Positions 21,521 to 55,750 are shown, counted from the stretch's first letter. The stretch: 64,000 bases of DNA from Myxococcota bacterium (GCA_965250285.1 OZ252299.1:2208001-2272000), one strand, 5' to 3'. The notes: generated from the letters alone by a model not told the origin. A program made the numbers and translations.

Positions 21521-24500
21521 ATGCTGCACTTACGCCGCCGTCGCGAGCGCCCCGCCGCGTCGGCTCGCACCCGACCCGGCCCGCATTCGCGCCGCCGCCC
21601 CTCTGCCACGCTCGCACTCGGCCTCTCGGCCCTGACGCTGCTCGTGGGCCTCGACGCGCGCGCGGCCAACTTCATCGTCTTCAATCAGACCGACGATCTC
21701 GTCGTCGCGCCCGATGGCTCGCTGCGTCAGGCCGTGCGCGAGCTCGATCTGATCGGTGACGTCGACGAAAACTCGATCTTCTTCGACCTGCCCACGAACG
21801 TGCCCGTGCTGCTCGAAGGCGCGCTCCCCGACATCACGCGCAACGTCGAGATCATCTCCGATCCGCTCTTCGGCGGCACGGTGAGCAAGGCCGACCCCGA
21901 GCTCGCGTTCGACATTCTGCGCGTGGCGACGGGCACGACGATCCTCGACGGCGTCGTCCTCGAAGACGGCCCGATCACGGTCGGCATCGACGGGTCGGGC
22001 GGCACCGATCCGACCGAGGCGAGCGAGGCTCGGGTCGGCTTCCGGTACGCCGAGGGGACGCTCGTCGAGTTCGATCAGACGATCACGGGGCTCGGCGGCG
22101 TGATCAAGGAGGGGCTCGGCGAGCTCGTCCTGAGCGGCGAGAACGACTTCGAGGCCGGCCTCTTCGTGACCGAAGGCAGCGTCGTCGTCGATGCGCAGTC
22201 GCTCCCCGGCGACGCCACGGTCGAAGACGGCGGCCTGCTCGTCTTCTCGAACTTCGACCGAGATCCCGACTCGGACGACCAACTCGAAGACGAGATCTAC
22301 GCAGGCGAAGTCAACGGCGAAGGTTCGGTCCGCAAGATCGGCTTCCACGACCTCGAGCTGACCGGCGTCGGCCTGCTGCAGACGGGAGGCACCGAGATTC
22401 TCGAGGGCTCCATCACCGCGACCCCCGCCCAGTTTCCCGGCGATGCGACGATCGGAGCCGATGCGAACCTCGTGCTCGACGTGGCGGGGGACGAGACGTG
22501 GGCCGGCAACGCCGATGGCGAGGGCGCGATCGCCAAGGGCGGGGCCGGCCGCCTGACCCTCGAAGGCACGCACACCAACACGCTCGGCATCTTCGTCGGT
22601 CAGGGCAGCGTGCGCGGCGCGGCGGCCAACCTCCCCCCGCGCGTCGAGCTCGCCGACGTCGGGACCACCCTCGAGATCGATCAACCGACGTCGGGCCAGT
22701 TCGACGGCGTGATCACCGGCAGTGGTCCGGTCGAGAAGCACGGCGCCGGCACGCTCACCCTCGCTGGCCAGAACGACTACACGGGCGGCACGACCATTCT
22801 CCAGGGGCGACTGCGCGGGGGCCTCGCTTCGATCCCGGGCGACGTCGTCGTCGATCCGGCGCTCGACGGCACGAGCACGCTCGAGCTCGTCATCGACGAC
22901 ACGCGCACCGCGACCGGCACCTACTCGGGCACCGGCGCGCTGGTCAAGAGCGGCAGCGGCCGCCTCGTCTTCGACAGCATTCAGCCGCTGCAGGGCGCGA
23001 TCACGGTCGAGTCGGGCGCGCTCGAGCTGACGTCGACCGGTCGAATCGACGGCAGCGTGGGGGGCATCGGCATCGCGCGCGGCGGCGAGCTGACGGGCGA
23101 AGGTCAGGCGACGGGCGATCTGGCCGTGAGCGGTCGCGTGCGGCCTGGCTCGGGTCTCGGGACGAGCCTCACCGCCGCAGGCAACGCGACGTTCGACGTC
23201 GACTCGGTCCTCGACGTCGAAGTGCAGTACGACGTCGGCGTCGGCAATCAGTCGAGCCTGCTCGTCGGCGGCACGACCACGCTCGAGGGCGGCACCGTCG
23301 ACGTCGAGGTTCAGCCCGGCGACTACGGCACAGCCCGCGCGTTCGCGGTGCTCTCGAGCGGAGCGATCGTCGAGACCGCGCCCGTTCAGCTCACACCCGT
23401 CTACGCGTTCGTCGACGTGACGGCGGCCACCGTCGGCAACGTGCTCGAGGTGAGCGTCGTCGAGAACGGCGCGAACGCGGTCACCTTCGCGCAGACCGAG
23501 AACCAGTTTCAGGTCGCCAGCGCACTCGACCAGCTGGTCGCGACCGATTCGCTCGACGACGACGTGCAGCGCAGCCTGGTCTCGGTGACCGTCGAAGACC
23601 TGCCCCGCGTGCTCGATGAGATGGGCGCCGCCTCGCTGTCGGTGATGTTCACGCAGCGCATCGAGAGCGGGCGCCGGTTCTCCCGGGCCGTGGCACGCCG
23701 CTTCACGGCCGCTCGCTACGAGGATTCACAGCCGAAGCCGCTGCGACGCGCGCCCAGGCCTGTGCGGCGGCCGTCACCCCCGCCCGAAGATCGCGTGCCC
23801 ACCGACCGACTCCACGGCCCCGATCGCATGGGTGCCGACGCGCCGTCGCCGTCGCCCGCCCCCGCTCCCGAAACGCTTGAAGGATCGTCGTCGCCCGACG
23901 TCGTCGAAGAGTCGGCGCCGTCTTCGGGCGAACCCACCGCGGTCGAAGAAGCGGCGCCGTCATCGGGCGAACCCACCGCGGTCGAGAAAGCGGCGCCGTC
24001 GGCGCTCGATCCGCCGCCCGTCGAAGCTGGACCGGCCCACCGCGCCAAGCCGATCGGCGGGTCGCAGGCCGGGCTGGCACTGTGGGGCGACGTCTTCGGC
24101 GTGTTCGGCAAGATCGACGGCGGCGTCGAGAGCGAAGACGTGAAGACGCGACTCTACGGCTTCACCCTCGGCGCCGACTATCGATTTCAGGAGGGGGGGC
24201 TGCTGCCCGAGGGCCACGGTCTGCGCGTCGGGGGCGCCGTCGACTACGGGCGCGCTGCTCCGCGCGGCGAACGGGGTCGAACCGAGACGAAGGCCAACCT
24301 CTTCCTCGTCGGCGGCCACGTGTCGTGGACCCGTGGCCCCCTCTACGCCGGCCTCGTCGGGCGCTACGGCTACATGAATGGCGAGAGCAGCCGGCGCATC
24401 GTCTTCGGCGACATCGACTCGACCGCCCTCGGCGACTTCGACGGCCAGGAGGGAGGTCTCTACACCGAGGTCGGCGCGCGCTTCGACGTCGGTCGCAACG

Positions 24501-24922
24501 TGATCCTGCAGCCGCGCGCCGGCGTCGAGTGGTCGAGACTGTCCCAGTCGGCGTTCACCGAGACGGGCGCGCCCGGTCTGAACCTCGACGTCGACTCACA
24601 GACGATCGACTCGATCCGCCCCTTCGTCATCGCGAACATCGCGGCCGAGATGACGCTCTACGACCGGTTTGGGATCGAGCCCGAGCTGCGCATCGGCTGG
24701 GGCACCGAGCTCGGCGACATCGACCGACTGATCGATGCCCGGCTCGAGGGCGTCGGCTTCTCGTCGATTGGCGCCGAGACGGCTCGCAACGAAGCCCTGA
24801 TCGGGGCGGGCTACACGATGCGGGTCACGCGCGGCGTCGCGATCTCGCTCGAGTACGACGCCCGCCTCGGCTCGAAGATCGCGTCGCACTCGATCGCGGC
24901 GGGGCTCCACATGCTCTGGTAG
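21521..24922 (+). CDS. Type Va autotransporter with passenger-associated (PATR) repeats and Pro/Ser/Glu-rich linker
   Basis: Repeats like VEKHGAGTLTLAGQNDYTGGTTILQGRL; C-terminal beta-barrel (GFTLGADYR, SAFTETGAPGLNL) ending in W; start uncertain. Confidence 0.88.
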   Translation: MLHLRRRRERPAASARTRPGPHSRRRPSATLALGLSALTLLVGLDARAANFIVFNQTDDLVVAPDGSLRQAVRELDLIGDVDENSIFFDLPTNVPVLLEGALPDITRNVEIISDPLFGGTVSKADPELAFDILRVATGTTILDGVVLEDGPITVGIDGSGGTDPTEASEARVGFRYAEGTLVEFDQTITGLGGVIKEGLGELVLSGENDFEAGLFVTEGSVVVDAQSLPGDATVEDGGLLVFSNFDRDPDSDDQLEDEIYAGEVNGEGSVRKIGFHDLELTGVGLLQTGGTEILEGSITATPAQFPGDATIGADANLVLDVAGDETWAGNADGEGAIAKGGAGRLTLEGTHTNTLGIFVGQGSVRGAAANLPPRVELADVGTTLEIDQPTSGQFDGVITGSGPVEKHGAGTLTLAGQNDYTGGTTILQGRLRGGLASIPGDVVVDPALDGTSTLELVIDDTRTATGTYSGTGALVKSGSGRLVFDSIQPLQGAITVESGALELTSTGRIDGSVGGIGIARGGELTGEGQATGDLAVSGRVRPGSGLGTSLTAAGNATFDVDSVLDVEVQYDVGVGNQSSLLVGGTTTLEGGTVDVEVQPGDYGTARAFAVLSSGAIVETAPVQLTPVYAFVDVTAATVGNVLEVSVVENGANAVTFAQTENQFQVASALDQLVATDSLDDDVQRSLVSVTVEDLPRVLDEMGAASLSVMFTQRIESGRRFSRAVARRFTAARYEDSQPKPLRRAPRPVRRPSPPPEDRVPTDRLHGPDRMGADAPSPSPAPAPETLEGSSSPDVVEESAPSSGEPTAVEEAAPSSGEPTAVEKAAPSALDPPPVEAGPAHRAKPIGGSQAGLALWGDVFGVFGKIDGGVESEDVKTRLYGFTLGADYRFQEGGLLPEGHGLRVGGAVDYGRAAPRGERGRTETKANLFLVGGHVSWTRGPLYAGLVGRYGYMNGESSRRIVFGDIDSTALGDFDGQEGGLYTEVGARFDVGRNVILQPRAGVEWSRLSQSAFTETGAPGLNLDVDSQTIDSIRPFVIANIAAEMTLYDRFGIEPELRIGWGTELGDIDRLIDARLEGVGFSSIGAETARNEALIGAGYTMRVTRGVAISLEYDARLGSKIASHSIAAGLHMLW
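23903..24000 (+). repeat. 39-bp in-frame tandem repeat x2.5 (VEEAAPSSGEPTA) in the autotransporter linker
   Basis: Units start at 23903, 23942 and 23981. Confidence 0.9.
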
Positions 24923-47719: not shown

Positions 47720-48601
47720 GTGGCGACGCCGCCGGAGCGCGAGCGCATCCAGCGAGAGACTCAGCTCGCGCGGGCCCGCAACGTGCACCTCGGGATCCTG
47801 CGCACCGAGCTGCGGGGTCGATCCTACGAACGCTTCTTTCGCTGGGAGCTCGACGACCTGCCGCCGCACGTCGAGGCTGCGGTCGCGCAGGGCGAAGCCG
47901 ATGCGGCCGACGCGCTGCCCTTCGCCGACGCACACCGGCTGCTGGAGCCGGGTCCACTCGCGCTCGAGACCGGTCACACGCGCATGCGAGACGGCACCGT
48001 GTTCGTCGCCGTCTCGACCGAGTTTCCCGGCGCGACGCCCGAGATGATCGACTGGTGGTTCGCCTGGCACGGCGAAGAGACTGATCGCTACAAGCTCTGG
48101 CACCCCCAGGCACATCTGTTCACGCAATGGCGCTACGCGCGCGGCGCGACGCCGGGGCTCTCCGACAAGGCGAAGTACATCGGCAACACCTCGTGGGTCG
48201 ACGAGTACGTGGGCCCCGAAATCAGCCGTCTGGCGATCCGGTTCCGGCCGCCGGGCGAGCTCGGGCTCGACGAGGCGCGCTTCGACGAAGCGGGCGTCGG
48301 GACCGCGGTGTGCGCGCGTGTCGGCTTCAGCGATCGGCCACTCGACGCCGGCCATCTCATCCACCTGATGCGACGCACCGAGAACGGCTGCGAGATGCGC
48401 AGTCGCTTCTGGATCGGCGATCCGCACCTCCGCTTCCTACCCGAGGGCAACCCGCTCGATCGCGCACTCGCGACACCGACGGCGCGTGGCCTCATGCTGC
48501 CGAGACGCATGGGCCACCACCTGCTGATTCACTGCGCCGAAGAGATGAACCACCTGGCGCGGTTTCTGCCCGAGCTCTACGCGCAGGAGACGGGCCAGTA
48601 G
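47720..48601 (+). CDS. PhlG-like (2,4-diacetylphloroglucinol hydrolase family) protein
   Basis: TPEMIDWWFAWH, RYKLWHPQAH, VDEY, EMRSRFW, HCAEEMNHLARFLPELY. Confidence 0.82.
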   Translation: MATPPERERIQRETQLARARNVHLGILRTELRGRSYERFFRWELDDLPPHVEAAVAQGEADAADALPFADAHRLLEPGPLALETGHTRMRDGTVFVAVSTEFPGATPEMIDWWFAWHGEETDRYKLWHPQAHLFTQWRYARGATPGLSDKAKYIGNTSWVDEYVGPEISRLAIRFRPPGELGLDEARFDEAGVGTAVCARVGFSDRPLDAGHLIHLMRRTENGCEMRSRFWIGDPHLRFLPEGNPLDRALATPTARGLMLPRRMGHHLLIHCAEEMNHLARFLPELYAQETGQ

Positions 48602-48676: not shown

Positions 48677-49597
48677 TCACCGGGCCAGCCAGCCCGCGTC
48701 GATCCAGCGCGCGAGCCAGCCTGCCGCGAGCGCGGCGGGCTCTTCGACCGCCGCGTCGCCCAGGCGCTCGTCGAGCCACAGACCCAGATCGCCGAACGTC
48801 TCGCCACCGGCGACGATTCGAGCCAGCGCTTCGGCCTCCAGTGCATCGACACTGCGAAACACGGCTCGCTCGCGCTCGCGCCAGACGATCAGCGTCTGGG
48901 GCTCGCTTCGCCGGTTGGGCGCTGCCGCATCGCCCCGACGCTGGGCGGTCACCATCTCACCGACCGACCAGCTGAAGGTGAGACGCGCGAACGCCGGCAC
49001 GACCTCGAGCGCGATCTCCGACCAGGCTTCGGGCGCGACCCGGGCGAGGTCGGCGCGCTGCAGTGGCGTCGCGTCGGGGGCATCGAAGACGTCGGCGAAG
49101 GCCCACTCGAGGCGCGCGATGTCATCTACACCCGGGAAGCGCTCACGCGCGAATGCGGCCACGGGATGCTCGGTCAGAAAGTCGGCAAAGGCGTGGCCGA
49201 GGTCTCGCAGGCTCGGCGAGCTCGACGGATGGGCGACGAGGTAGGCCGTCACCAGATCGTGAAAAGCCGCCTCGCCGCAGAGCCAGGCGACGGTCGGATA
49301 GTCGCCCTCGAGCACCTCGAGCAGCCGCGCGAAGTAGGCCTGGGCGTAGACGTCGAGCCGCGCAGGCGCCGCGAGTCGATCGTCGCTGCGCACGGTGCCG
49401 GCGAGGGCGGCGGCGGGATCGGACCAGGCGTCGAGCCAACCCGGCACGCCGGGCCGTCCTTCGAGCGCCGGCTGTACGCCGGTGGGTGCCGTCACCAGCG
49501 CGCGCAGCAGACGCTGCATCTCGACGAGCGATTCGGGCGGCGCAGCGGCGACCGGGGCGCGAGAGGAGACGTGGGCGTCGCCGGGTTCGGTGCTCAT
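48677..49597 (-). CDS. DUF2063 (BufC/HvfC-like) MNIO partner protein
   Basis: RLDVYAQAYFARL..L..DYP, HPSSSPSL..LG..FADFL, DIARLEWA; ATGA overlap with the DUF692 gene. Confidence 0.85.
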   Translation of the reverse strand: MSTEPGDAHVSSRAPVAAAPPESLVEMQRLLRALVTAPTGVQPALEGRPGVPGWLDAWSDPAAALAGTVRSDDRLAAPARLDVYAQAYFARLLEVLEGDYPTVAWLCGEAAFHDLVTAYLVAHPSSSPSLRDLGHAFADFLTEHPVAAFARERFPGVDDIARLEWAFADVFDAPDATPLQRADLARVAPEAWSEIALEVVPAFARLTFSWSVGEMVTAQRRGDAAAPNRRSEPQTLIVWRERERAVFRSVDALEAEALARIVAGGETFGDLGLWLDERLGDAAVEEPAALAAGWLARWIDAGWLAR

Positions 49598-50475
49598 GCG
49601 GCCGCCTCTGCGCACGCGCTCGCCATGAGGCGGCGCGCACGCTGAGCCTCTTCGATCAGGCGATCCAAGGTCGGAAGCTGGTCGTCCCATTCGATCAGGG
49701 TCGAGACGGGGCCAGTCCGCCGGATGACGCGCTCGTAGAGCCGCCACACCTCGTCGCGGACGGGGTGATCGTGGGTATCGATGAGCAGCGGCCCGCTCTC
49801 GGAGTGGCCCGCGAGGTGAATCTGAAAGATGCGCTCGGGTGGGATCGCGTCGAGGTACGTCTCTGCGTCGAAGCCGTGATTGTGCGCGCTCACGAATACG
49901 TTGTTGACGTCGAGGAGCACGCCGCAGTCGGCCCGCTCGGCGAGCGTGGCGATGAACTGCCACTCGTCGAGCTCGTCTTCTTCGAACGAGAGATACGAAG
50001 ACACGTTCTCGACCGCGATGCGGCGGCCGAGTCGATCCTGCACGCGACCGATGCGATCGGCGAGCCAGGCGAGCACGGCTTCGCTCGCGGGGAGCGGCAT
50101 CAGGTCGTGCAGGTGGGCCCCGCCGACGCCCGTCCAGCACAGGTGATCCGAGAGCCAGGCGGGCTCGACACGCTGGGCGAGCGATGCCAATCGGTCGAGA
50201 TAGTCGTCGTCGAGCGGATCGGTCGATCCGAGATTCATGGACACGCCGTGCATCACGACCGGTCGCTCGGCACGCACATCGTCGAGCAGGCGCCCGGGTC
50301 GCCCGCCGCGCACCATGAAGTTCTCTGAGATGACTTCGAGGAAGTCGATCTCGAGATCGCCCGCGCGCGCTCGTCGCAGCACGTCGTCATAGTGCGGCAC
50401 GCGCAGCCCGATGCCGACGCCCAAAGCGGGCGCCTCGACAGGACGTGCGGGGCGGGGTGTCGGAGGCGGCGGCAT
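49594..50475 (-). CDS. DUF692 multinuclear non-heme iron oxidative enzyme (MNIO, BufB/HvfB-like)
   Basis: GIGLRVPH, EVISENF, HGVSM, SDHLCW, HDLMPLP, AVENVSSY, LLDVNN, IHLAGH, IDTHD, LIEWD; start approximate. Confidence 0.93.
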   Translation of the reverse strand: MPPPPTPRPARPVEAPALGVGIGLRVPHYDDVLRRARAGDLEIDFLEVISENFMVRGGRPGRLLDDVRAERPVVMHGVSMNLGSTDPLDDDYLDRLASLAQRVEPAWLSDHLCWTGVGGAHLHDLMPLPASEAVLAWLADRIGRVQDRLGRRIAVENVSSYLSFEEDELDEWQFIATLAERADCGVLLDVNNVFVSAHNHGFDAETYLDAIPPERIFQIHLAGHSESGPLLIDTHDHPVRDEVWRLYERVIRRTGPVSTLIEWDDQLPTLDRLIEEAQRARRLMASACAEAAA

Positions 50476-50555
50476 GGACAGACCCGGGTCGGACACCGTG
50501 AACGCACGCCGTCGCGAACGGAGCCGCATCGGCCCCGCCCGCGACGACCGTGGGC

Positions 50556-50816
50556 TCACTTCTCGGCGAGCGTGCCGCCGGCGGCCTCACACTCTTCGGG
50601 CGTCAGGTAGACCCAGCCCTTGCCCTTGCAGCTGTTCTGACCGCCGCAGTCGTGGCTCGCGGTGTGGCATTCGCCCTGACCCTTGCAGGCGTTGCCGCCG
50701 TCGCACTTCACCTTGCCTTCGCTGGTGCCGCCGTGCTCGTCGGCGGCAGCGGTGCCAGCGGCCCCGAGCGCAAACAGCGCCGCGGCGGCCGAAGCGATGA
50801 CGGTCTTCTTGTCCAT
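50556..50816 (-). CDS. Cys-rich secreted RiPP precursor (bufferin BufA2-type)
   Basis: Sec-type signal peptide, then two C-x-G-x-N-x-C-K-G-x-G units (CDGGNACKGQG, CGGQNSCKGKG) and EECEAAGG; GAGGAG RBS. Confidence 0.88.
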   Translation of the reverse strand: MDKKTVIASAAAALFALGAAGTAAADEHGGTSEGKVKCDGGNACKGQGECHTASHDCGGQNSCKGKGWVYLTPEECEAAGGTLAEK

Positions 50817-53700: not shown

Positions 53701-54240
53701 TCATGCGGTCAGCTTGGCGAGCAGCTCGTCCGCGACGCGTTCGGCGATCACGACCATCTCGTCGTCGGTGCGGTCCTGGATCGGGTGCTCGACGTAGACC
53801 GCGTCGGGCTCACCGCCCAGCGCGCGGGCCTGCACCTCGGCCCCGTCCTCGAACTCGACCGTGGCGACGAACGCCGAAGGGATGCCTCGCGACTCGAGAT
53901 CCAACGTGTCGTGCACACTGCACGACGTGCAGCTGCCTCAATCGGCGAGGGCTTCGATCACCGCGTCACAACGGGTCGCGATCTCCTGGCGCAGATCGGC
54001 CGGCGCAGGCTTGGTGAACGTCGGCTTGCGGTAGCGGACCACGTCGGCCCCATGCTCGCGCAGGCGCGCCTCGAGACGGTCGAGGAAGACGTCGCCCCGG
54101 GGCTTCGAGATGTCGAGCAGGCCGACGGTGCGGCCCTCGAACCCATCGAGCCGGGCGGCCCGCGGTCGGCCGTCGGGGGCGAGTTCGCCGGTCGGGTCGA
54201 GCAGCAGGCGCTCGCTGCGCGGGTCGATCGTTTCGCTCAT
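53701..54240 (-). CDS. UGSC-type selenoprotein (in-frame UGA = Sec at codon 101; 179 aa)
   Basis: ORFs 53938-54240 and 53701-53916 are in frame; read-through gives ...EALAD-U-GSCTSCSVHDTLDLESRGIP...; SECIS-like hairpin follows. Confidence 0.88.
53908..53926 (-). other. Bacterial SECIS-like stem-loop
   Basis: GUCGUGCA-GUG-UGCACGAC, a perfect 8-bp stem with a GU-starting loop, after an 11-nt spacer from the UGA. Confidence 0.7.
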
Positions 54241-54304
54241 GATCGCTCCTCGGCTGCGGCCGTGCGGGACGGCCCTCGGGTGGACACGGTCGAGGCGGCC
54301 GCCT

Positions 54305-55750
54305 TCACGGCCGAATCTCGCGCGTGACGGGCTGACTGCCGATCTCGCCGTTCGCCCACCCGCCGATCATCGCAGAGAAGAGCCCCGCACCGCCACCGCA
54401 GTGCACGACGAGCAGCCCCTCCGGACGAAACTTCGGCAACATCGCGTCCTTCACGTGCTCGGGGGCCCCTTCGGCGATGCCCCCCGCACCCCGCACGAGC
54501 TCGGCACCCGGGATCAGCAGCAGCTCGTGGAGCCGCTTCTTGAGGTCGTCCTTCGACCAGCCCGCGTCGCGGAACACGCGCGAGTGATCGGGGGCCACGG
54601 CGAGGATGCAGTCGAAGGCCATGATCAGCTTCGGGTGATGCAGCGTGCGCAGGTTGACGGCGAAGCTTCGCGCGAGGCTCTCGGGGTCTCGCGAGAGCTG
54701 ATCGACGATGCTCCGCGGGCCCTCGCCCGGAAACACCGTCACGGTGTCGACGCCCGGCTCGTAGCCGTAGTCGGCCGAGAGCGGCGTCCACGGCGACGCC
54801 TCTTCGTCTTCGGCAAAGCAGAACGAGAGCTTGCCCGGGTTGCCGAACGTCGCGCGATCGACCTCGCCCGGCCGACCGCCGCCGACGTTGCGCACGACGA
54901 GTTGCAGGGCCCGGCCGATCGTCGAGTTCGCGCGGTTGCCCTGCCCGAATACGTTGCCAGCGGCGTTCATCCCGATCCGCCGGCGCACGCCTCCGTTCAC
55001 GATCACGACCGGCGACACGGGCATCGTCGTCGCCAAGAGACCGTGCATGTTGAAAGCGTCGGTGCAGACGGCCTCGACGGCGGCGAGCACGACCGGCAGA
55101 TACTCGGGCAGGCAGCCCGCCATCACGGCGTTGACCGCGACCTTCTCGACCGTGCACGGCGCGAGGTCGGGCGGCACCACCGCGACCACCTCGTCGGGCT
55201 TGCGCAACGTGCCCGCGAGCATGCGCGCGACCCGCGAGCGCGTCGGTGGCACGAGCGGCAGGCCATCGCTCCAGCCGCGCGCGAACATGGCCTCGATCGG
55301 ATCCTCCTGTTCGCCGAGCTCGACGGGCCGCGATGCGAGCGAAAGGCCACCGAAGCGCACGGCGAGCTCGGGGGCGAGTTCGGGATCGACTGAACGCGAG
55401 CCACAGCCCGGCCGCTGCTCGGGCAGCCCTGCCCCGAGGCCTTCGAGCCCGGTGACCGCCTCCCACTCGCCGCGATGCCAGCCGATGGCCCGCTCGGCCT
55501 CGCGGCCGCCCGAGCGGCGCACGATCGTGGGCACGGCCTCGATGCCGCTGCGCCACGAATGCTCGAGCTCGCGGTCGTCGACGACGTCACCCGCCGCAGG
55601 AAAGCTCGGATCGTCCTGGGTGAACACGACGAGGCCAGAGCGCTCCCCGATCTCGGCGAGCACCGGCTCGACGAGCTCGCAGGTCGGGCAATCGCGTTTC
55701 ACGAAGGCGACCAGCCCTTCGTCGGGCAGCGTCGCTGCGGTGCGGGCCAT
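54305..55750 (-). CDS. Thioredoxin-like (CPTC) domain fused to an uncharacterised 'DGLPxxPPT' domain; UGSC partner
   Basis: FVKRDCPTC...IEAVPT; PGCGS; GWSDGLPLVPPT, TVEKVAVNAVMAGC.PEY, RANSTIGRA, GNPGK. Confidence 0.8.
   Translation of the reverse strand: MARTAATLPDEGLVAFVKRDCPTCELVEPVLAEIGERSGLVVFTQDDPSFPAAGDVVDDRELEHSWRSGIEAVPTIVRRSGGREAERAIGWHRGEWEAVTGLEGLGAGLPEQRPGCGSRSVDPELAPELAVRFGGLSLASRPVELGEQEDPIEAMFARGWSDGLPLVPPTRSRVARMLAGTLRKPDEVVAVVPPDLAPCTVEKVAVNAVMAGCLPEYLPVVLAAVEAVCTDAFNMHGLLATTMPVSPVVIVNGGVRRRIGMNAAGNVFGQGNRANSTIGRALQLVVRNVGGGRPGEVDRATFGNPGKLSFCFAEDEEASPWTPLSADYGYEPGVDTVTVFPGEGPRSIVDQLSRDPESLARSFAVNLRTLHHPKLIMAFDCILAVAPDHSRVFRDAGWSKDDLKKRLHELLLIPGAELVRGAGGIAEGAPEHVKDAMLPKFRPEGLLVVHCGGGAGLFSAMIGGWANGEIGSQPVTREIRP

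Follow-up and report, generated by a model that had tools for sequence, protein, structure and literature searches.

The DNA stretch analyzed here (the window) covers 64,000 nucleotides from a Myxococcota bacterium (GCA_965250285.1, OZ252299.1:2208001-2272000) and carries, on its minus strand, two adjacent genes encoding a protein with a thioredoxin-like and a DGLP domain and a UGSC selenoprotein. The upstream open reading frame (55750..54305(-)) encodes 481 amino acids (P0001), with a CPTC motif at residues 21-24, an RPGCGS linker, and the motifs GWSDGLPLVPPT, NAVMAGC, and RANSTIGRA. This thioredoxin-linker-DGLP ("Unknown_1") gene (54305..55750) has no Pfam match, and its product was modeled with a predicted local distance difference test (pLDDT) score of 96 and a predicted template modeling score of 0.91. 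The downstream frame (54240..53701(-)) encodes the UGSC protein (P0002; 53701..54240), of 179 amino acids once a single in-frame TGA at codon 101, in the context ALAD-U-GSCTSCSVHD, is read through. The intergenic gap (54241..54304, minus strand) contains a GAGGAG run resembling a ribosome-binding site; indeed, Shine-Dalgarno-like purine runs precede both starts (GAAGGAGG and GAGGAG). Reading the frames confirmed the layout given in the initial annotation, namely two genes on the same strand with a 64-bp gap, the CPTC motif, the PGCGS linker, and the listed motifs.

Domain structure of the two proteins

Residues 1-103 of P0001 (55442..55750, minus strand) form a thioredoxin-fold domain in the model (VIA Z 9.6, root-mean-square deviation (rmsd) 2.8 Å, 103 aligned residues). 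The CPTC motif (C21, C24; 55679..55690) lies between strand 12-17 and helix 22-26, which corresponds to a thioredoxin fold with its CxxC at the first helix, and is found in 117/119 close homologs. In phmmer searches, this domain matched thioredoxins only at E 0.3-0.8. The linker cysteine, C116 (RPG-C-GS, codon TGT in the window genome, 55403..55405), is part of a GCG[SA] motif present in 119/119 close homologs. The modeled linker forms an ordered segment (block pLDDT 88-97), which lends no support to a swinging arm. The closest relatives of P0001 carry Myxococcota/Deltaproteobacteria metagenome-assembled genome (MAG) labels. In P0132, P0187, and P0263, the called start falls inside the thioredoxin-like domain, past the expected CxxC, and some of these proteins may have been cut at a UxxC codon.

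The DGLP, or Unknown_1, domain spans approximately residues 151-481 (54308..55300), with conserved D162, C213, T242, N275, R280, C311, E314, and H389. Its motifs, which had been described as conserved-looking, proved to be truly conserved in an alignment of 80 diverse rows: D162 was found in 75/75, C213 in 73/78 (replaced by Ala in the other 5), N275 and R280 each in 80/80, C311 in 74/80, and E314 in 79/80. The AVNAVMAGCLPEY stretch of P0001 fits the A[VI]NxVMAGCxPEY block, with its conserved Cys, of the UGSC-linked Unknown_1 domain aligned in Fig. S1A of PMC2398784. The family comprises 5398 clusters at 50% identity (E≤0.001), and the domain had no consistent match in Pfam or NCBIfam (at most 1/55 members per family). 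PDB sequence searches with DGLP profiles returned 0 matches at E≤10, and 29/30 matches of an Atlas feature search were unnamed clusters, leaving no usable named match. Both VIA searches of the whole P0001 model were filled by thioredoxins, so the fold of the DGLP domain was barely probed and a new fold is not established. The best Foldseek match of the whole model was a fumarate hydratase alpha chain (7xky_A, E 5.9e-4, but TM 0.23/0.34 and rmsd 14.5 Å), with further class I fumarases at ranks 8-28, and the AGCxP motif of the domain aligned with an AACPP stretch of 30 fumarase sequences (HHalign E 0.065-0.14, not significant). Homology to class I fumarases (PF05681) was unsupported by profiles (E 0.14 and 0.065), as was an internal duplication of the domain (E 0.17). 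Tandem DGLP-DGLP proteins of ~710-740 amino acids also occur (P0134, P0140, P0148, P0155, P0196, P0220), an arrangement which suggests that the domain works as a dimer.

P0002 scores above the curated cut-offs of NF041046 (152 vs 125 bits) and PF24696 (153 vs 25 bits). Its U-G-S-C-T-S-C motif (53920..53940, minus strand) comprises the TGA (53940-53938), C104, and C107, and the codon was TGA in 55/55 motif matches. A hairpin resembling a selenocysteine insertion sequence (SECIS), with an 8-bp stem in the minimum-energy fold (53908..53926, minus strand), starts 11 nt 3' of this TGA, and the source genome encodes both tRNA-Sec (62.6 bits, cut-off 47) and SelA (E 8e-130). Because the folding energy of the hairpin is no better than that of shuffled sequences (z 0.06 and -0.99), the SECIS call rests better on its synonymous sites, which are almost invariant in 55 homologs (T at +23 in 55/55, G at +17 in 54/55). 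With an in-frame UGA in U-G-S-C, a downstream hairpin, and the machinery for selenocysteine (Sec) in the genome, Sec insertion at codon 101 is predicted.

In the P0002 model, built with Cys in place of Sec (pLDDT 94), five strands alternate with helices, and residue 101 follows strand 93-99 and directly precedes helix 102-117. Flavodoxin/Rossmann-like structures filled the 50 best VIA rows and the Foldseek rows listed (best Z 11.7), with no thioredoxin among them. These matches represent a generic alpha/beta fold, tied with LacI-type domains; one of the top-scoring ties, 8s7v_H (Z 11.6), belongs to the activation complex of methyl-coenzyme M reductase. A PDB sequence search with UGSC returned only 3-hydroxyacyl-CoA dehydrogenases (E 0.03-0.15). 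The fold of UGSC is predicted from the model to be flavodoxin-like and not thioredoxin-like, whereas PMC2398784 called the family likely thioredoxin-fold. The CGS of the linker had been read as an echo of the UGS of the partner; this is probably not homology, as one motif trails a thioredoxin domain and the other caps a helix of a flavodoxin-like domain.

Cysteine and likely selenocysteine at the linker position

Every one of the 76 linker codons recovered across 84 genome loci specifies Cys (TGA 0/76), as does that of the window genome. This first pointed to a negative answer, and it should be noted that those loci were chosen by similarity to the window's clade. A metagenome scan was made with the pattern L-P-x-x-[RK]-P-G-TGA-G-S-x-[ST]-x-[DE]-P, the Cys version of which recovers 46/80 known loci, and at least 120 stretches matched. 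Among the 120 matches listed, the DGLP domain follows in frame in 110, and a thioredoxin-like domain also precedes in 108; one domain is missing from the frame in the remaining 12, of which 3 are chance-like and the rest cut or frameshifted. Sixty of the listed stretches reach a normal stop, and 41 of these show UGSC within the 1.5-kb flank, all 41 with TGA. UGA in place of the PGCGS Cys codon, raised earlier as a check on homologs, was thus found in at least 108 metagenome stretches with both domains in frame, and in one genome, G449.

Four stem pairs located 3' of the linker TGA are kept in 98-100% of 97 distinct Sec sequences, compared with 57-78% of 77 Cys-form sequences, and the loop Pro codon is CCC in 95/97 of the former and 30/77 of the latter. 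For a five-pair structure evaluated over 51 loci, 98.3% of cells were paired, a value reached by 0/500 shuffles, while slid controls gave 19-51%. In a tree of the DGLP domain alone (76 rows, left once near-copies exceeding 85% and a single row lacking the motif had been removed), the linker-TGA forms make up two clades among Cys forms. A single origin was rejected by the approximately unbiased test (p 4e-6, 30 chosen rows), and the tree fits either two gains or a gain plus losses. One of the two clades adjoins Acidimicrobiia MAG sequences, and G449, a genome of that class, combines a linker TGA, a UGSC TGA, SelA, and tRNA-Sec. A class-level search matched 117/301 genomes, with 74 matches outside the set listed; among the 4 full-length TGA-flagged and 12 shortened matches examined, only G449 had a linker TGA, the flag in the other three full-length matches being a normal stop codon. 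In a second phylum, 6/401 genomes matched and none had a linker TGA. As G449 is the only such case among the genome matches examined, genomes with the Sec form make up a minority of those sampled. The linker travels together with the thioredoxin domain, and it was not observed in the thioredoxin-less copies L025, L028, L029, L032, L284, L285, L288, L290, L291, and L293.

Eight linker-Sec proteins had no match at E≤0.05 among the NCBIfam 20.0 selenoprotein models, and the family is missing from the 2026 list of 119 selenoprotein families as given in Table 1 of PMC13188914. The string PGUGS[LR] was not found in the portion of Dataset S1 of PMC2398784 that was covered, where 12 PGUGS strings, of those displayed, belong to a different DPGUGSC thioredoxin-like protein. 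GUGS was not found in four deep-Sep supplements; the supplements of the Haft papers might affect how new the linker Sec can be called. Considered as sequences, these forms indicate that the linker residue is likely selenocysteine in two clades other than the window's. According to PMC2673044, Cys/Sec pairs mark catalytic redox cysteines; by this rule, the exchange at the linker implicates C116 as a catalytic redox cysteine.

Pairing with UGSC and comparison with known systems

The pairing of DGLP with UGSC is near-obligate. In a survey of 151 genomes of the window's own phylum with a DGLP profile and PF24696, both families occurred in the same 20 genomes and neither in the other 131, so the co-occurrence expected for this system is borne out. 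The copies number 32:32, are equal in every genome (7/7, 4/4, 3/3, 2/2), and are adjacent in 30/32 cases. Such equal paralog numbers (7/7, 4/4, 3/3) make single-operon descent hard to invoke, although related genomes are not independent. Among loci fetched by the DGLP domain, UGSC was present in 71/80, and 3 of the other 9 stop at a contig edge. The source genome (G000) itself holds a second pair, without a thioredoxin domain (C1:3021546-3019995). At L147 (G097:C12), a DGLP match that may be a broken or fused copy contains one in-frame TAG and has UGSC directly upstream. In both G092 and G147, a NUDIX NADH pyrophosphatase gene is found close to UGSC.

Natural fusions, the other sign of association that had been sought, were found in both orders among 150 listed representatives of DGLP clusters: UGSC-DGLP in P0237, P0241, P0247, P0229, and P0264, and DGLP-UGSC, ending just ahead of the Sec position, in P0138, P0208, P0217, and P0243. 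The same representatives include fusions to possible donors, with a ferredoxin-thioredoxin reductase beta-DGLP protein (P0146) and a DGLP-thioredoxin-reductase-like protein (P0268), and redoxin-type N-terminal domains (AhpC-TSA/Redoxin matches) in distant DGLP fusions.

Genomes carry up to 7-9 divergent paralogs, and the thioredoxin-fused ortholog is mostly single-copy and lineage-wide. The thioredoxin-less paralogs neighbor amidohydrolases, TauD, luciferase-like monooxygenases, CoA-transferases, P450s, MFS transporters, and MarR/TetR/IclR regulators; since the host genomes are rich in such genes, this neighborhood is weak evidence for a catabolic role. The commonest neighbor other than UGSC is a luciferase-like monooxygenase (20/82 loci), and selA, selB, and selD adjoin the pair in 9, 8, and 7 of the 82 loci, respectively. 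The loci L001:4042-13819(-) and L144:4118-10899(+) have an operon core in common (MarR, an Amidohydro_3 deacylase-like protein, DGLP, UGSC, TauD, a cupin-like protein, and Amidohydro_2) with an MFS transporter nearby, which makes them the best substrate lead. The UGSC motif of L001 is U-G-S-C-T-S-W, the third Cys being gone.

The direct neighbors of the window pair comprise a convergent DUF481 gene and a divergent Amidohydro_2 gene, as well as TauD and DUF3604. The initial annotation had placed the pair among acyl-CoA and aromatic catabolic genes; for the former this does not hold locally, as the acyl-CoA genes of the window (CoA-transferase III, enoyl-CoA hydratase, AMP-binding) are separated from the pair by at least ~20 kb. 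Other features of the window include a three-gene cluster resembling those for ribosomally synthesized and post-translationally modified peptides (48677-50816(-)), with an 86-amino-acid, Cys-rich precursor bearing a signal-like N-terminus (50556-50816), an MbnB/TglH/ChrH (DUF692) enzyme (49594-50559), and a DUF2063 protein; we take this cluster to resemble the bufferin type. An autotransporter with passenger-associated repeats (21521-24919(+)) and a DAPG hydrolase PhiG-domain protein (47720-48601(+)) adjoining a BD-FAE esterase were also observed.

The system is less uncharted than the label "uncharacterized", attached to it at the outset, had implied. UGSC is already catalogued: PMC2398784 counts it as one of the most abundant selenoproteins of aquatic environments (255 sequences across 37 GOS samples, Table 2), PMC1976440 describes it as a selenoprotein with function unknown, and PMC13188914 keeps it, still uncharacterized, within its 119 families. 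The fusion of UGSC to the DGLP domain was published in 2008 by Zhang and Gladyshev (PMC2398784), whose Unknown_1 is the DGLP domain by the AVNGVMAGC.PEY alignment of Fig. S1A, and fused sequences with WTDGLP/WSDGLP appear in Dataset S1. Fig. S1A and PMC1976440 record Hyphomonas neptunium as a carrier of the pair. The searched parts of the text and supplements of PMC2398784 give no function for UGSC or a linker Sec. Unlike this 2008 fusion, as depicted there, the window encodes the two parts as separate genes, and the partner adds a thioredoxin domain and a redox linker. It shares a thioredoxin fold and a redox Cys/Sec with the thioredoxin-fold selenoproteins of the 2026 list in PMC13188914 (UGC-containing TlpA, VPGUxxT, HUIPC, hypothetical protein DG, and others), but its CxxC remains Cys, and the Sec of the linker-Sec forms would lie ~92 residues later, in PG-U-GS before DGLP.

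Glycine/sarcosine/betaine reductase, with selenoprotein B (GrdB/GrdF/GrdH) alongside GrdE, GrdA, and GrdC, and D-proline reductase (PrdB with PrdA) are also among the closest known systems. According to PMC13188914, GrdB has a UxxCxxC motif, and its partner GrdA is a selenoprotein reduced by thioredoxin; according to PMC11229817, the PrdB Sec attacks a substrate carbon and is then regenerated by an electron carrier. Of 64 UGSC rows, 38 match TIGR01917 (GrdB) at E≤0.05 (best 6.7e-6), with 38 matches to GrdF, 9 to GrdH, and 1 to PrdB. The UGSC profile scored 32.7 against 30 PrdB-like sequences taken from the surveyed genomes, compared with at most 21.0 in 40 column-shuffled controls, and aligned Sec on Sec. 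P0002 is not itself a GrdB/PrdB member (TIGR01917 14.8 vs 602 bits, no PF07355 match). The likeness to selenoprotein B of these reductases, suggested in the initial annotation, therefore persists as a weak but consistent sequence relationship, and UGSC appears to be a distant homolog of the Sec-bearing part of GrdB/PrdB. The systems have in common the UxxCxxC motif, a small Sec subunit with a large partner, and thioredoxin as the likely donor. Unlike GrdB, UGSC has no N-terminal part, and no GrdA/GrdC-type gene recurs nearby in the 82 loci. The hosts also differ, being Myxococcota, Actinomycetota, and Alphaproteobacteria MAGs (as labeled) for UGSC/DGLP and amino-acid-fermenting clostridia for Grd/Prd. 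PF07355 matched 21/151 genomes, which include 16 of the 20 that carry the UGSC/DGLP pair, and TGA was present in 31/31 loci examined. Three PrdB-like genes with an in-frame TGA in V/L-U-P-x-C-x-[RQ] are found in G000 (L083, L084, and L085 at C1:3706134, 120896, and 3939078); no PrdA-like gene was noticed beside them, and no search aimed at one was made.

Proposed relay and alternative functions

We consider it rather probable that the pair is a two-subunit, selenium-dependent reductase with a relay from thioredoxin through the linker Cys/Sec to the UGSC Sec, driving reductive bond cleavage. All of its catalytic steps are inferred. UGSC Sec101, positioned where the helix following strand 3 begins, would be the nucleophile, as is the Sec of PrdB/GrdB with which it aligns, and C104 would resolve the substrate adduct to give a selenenyl-sulfide. 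The DGLP domain would take the place of the pyruvoyl subunit PrdA/GrdE, providing the substrate pocket and acid/base groups (the invariant D162, N275, R280, and E314, with the mostly kept C213 and C311). Electrons would flow from NADPH or ferredoxin through thioredoxin reductase to CPTC, then to C116/U and UGSC, with the linker in the shuttle role played by GrdA; copies without a thioredoxin domain may draw on a free thiol reductant. The most likely reaction would be a two-electron cleavage of a carbon-heteroatom (or S-O/N-O) bond in a small organic substrate during heterotrophic catabolism, and the substrate class is a guess.

Several observations weigh against this relay or its components. 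Many DGLP-UGSC pairs have no thioredoxin domain, and in 2/20 genomes (G092 and G147, of one genus; L156-L159) the thioredoxin-DGLP and UGSC genes lie on different contigs. The equivalent of C104 is not universal (CGASSSW in P0241, CGTSTSM in P0247), and the UGSC domains of the fusions P0229 and P0264 have neither Sec/Cys nor the CxxC-like residues. The donor fusions P0146 and P0268 stand for clusters of 1-2 members and could be chimeras. At the linker, the hairpin is hardly more stable than synonymous resamplings of its sequence (mean z -0.57, against -0.28 in Cys forms), its one two-sided change coincides with an amino-acid difference between the two clades, and four hairpin columns are fixed by the search pattern itself. 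For the PrdB comparison, the HHalign probability is only 46%, and with the UGSC hidden Markov model no PrdB-like sequence reached an E value under 5.8. None of 55 DGLP proteins matched a Pfam/NCBIfam model of a pyruvoyl-forming partner (PrdA/GrdE) at E≤0.1; as DGLP is unlike PrdA/GrdE or any family, substrate activation must differ. Finally, no gene family besides UGSC recurs across lineages near DGLP in the 82 loci, and with neighbors not conserved beyond a lineage, no pathway is indicated.

Some of these points would also suit a selenol-dependent transferase or lyase without net substrate reduction, in which the Sec would act by covalent attack, in an alkyl, acyl, sulfur, or epoxide transfer, with the thioredoxin-linker part serving only to keep it reduced. 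Thioredoxin-less pairs are common, C104 can be missing, and paralogs occur among hydrolases, CoA-transferases, and oxygenases; however, the fact that the linker Cys was exchanged for Sec more than once speaks for a redox step that limits turnover and not for occasional repair, and fusions to reductases exist. We regard this function as unlikely. We give similarly little weight to an antioxidant or repair reductase acting on a peroxide, a sulfoxide, or an oxidized low-molecular-weight thiol, with an Msr- or peroxiredoxin-like purpose and not a catabolic one. Such a role would agree with the mostly single-copy, lineage-wide thioredoxin-fused ortholog, with the selA, selB, and selD genes beside some pairs, and with the AhpC-TSA/Redoxin matches of distant fusions. 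Substrate-specific enzymes are a better fit to the 7-9 divergent paralogs reached per genome, in catabolic clusters with regulators and transporters, and the invariant polar residues of the 340-amino-acid partner point to a defined pocket.

A metal or Fe-S enzyme, in which C213 and C311 with C116/Sec or the UGSC Sec/Cys would ligate a cluster in the manner of class I fumarate hydratase alpha, seems more improbable still. It is brought to mind by the Foldseek ranking of 7xky_A and other class I fumarases, by the alignment of AGCxP with AACPP, and by 8s7v_H among the tied top UGSC matches. Yet the fumarase superposition is poor and the profile E values are not significant, C213 is Ala in some rows and C116 is absent from thioredoxin-less copies, and the UGSC matches are generic alpha/beta folds tied with LacI-type domains.

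The locus is a real, conserved system of which the window pair is one more member, as UGSC was known and its link to the partner published. What is new is the likely linker Sec in two clades, the one-to-one copy numbers, and the revised fold prediction and homology of UGSC. Taken further, the relay would be a very widespread, undescribed system of non-fermentative bacteria, related to the Stickland selenoenzyme reductases, with a PrdB-derived Sec nucleophile, a large subunit of possibly new fold (>5000 clusters, no Pfam), a built-in thioredoxin, and a second Sec evolved at least twice; we hold this broader view tentatively, at a little short of an even chance. UGSC has been without a function since 2007, and a fixed partner, a located second redox residue, a revised predicted fold class, and the GrdB/PrdB link make a defined reconstitution experiment possible. 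The DGLP family, large and with no Pfam, NCBIfam, or PDB sequence match, is itself a structure target. In linker-Sec lineages, gene callers probably split the partner gene at the linker UGA, and lists of selenoproteomes likely miss the family. If the relay is true, thioredoxin-DGLP would count as a selenoprotein family not yet listed, and together with UGSC it would make up a two-selenoprotein relay bringing new reductive bond-cleaving chemistry to the breakdown of organic matter.

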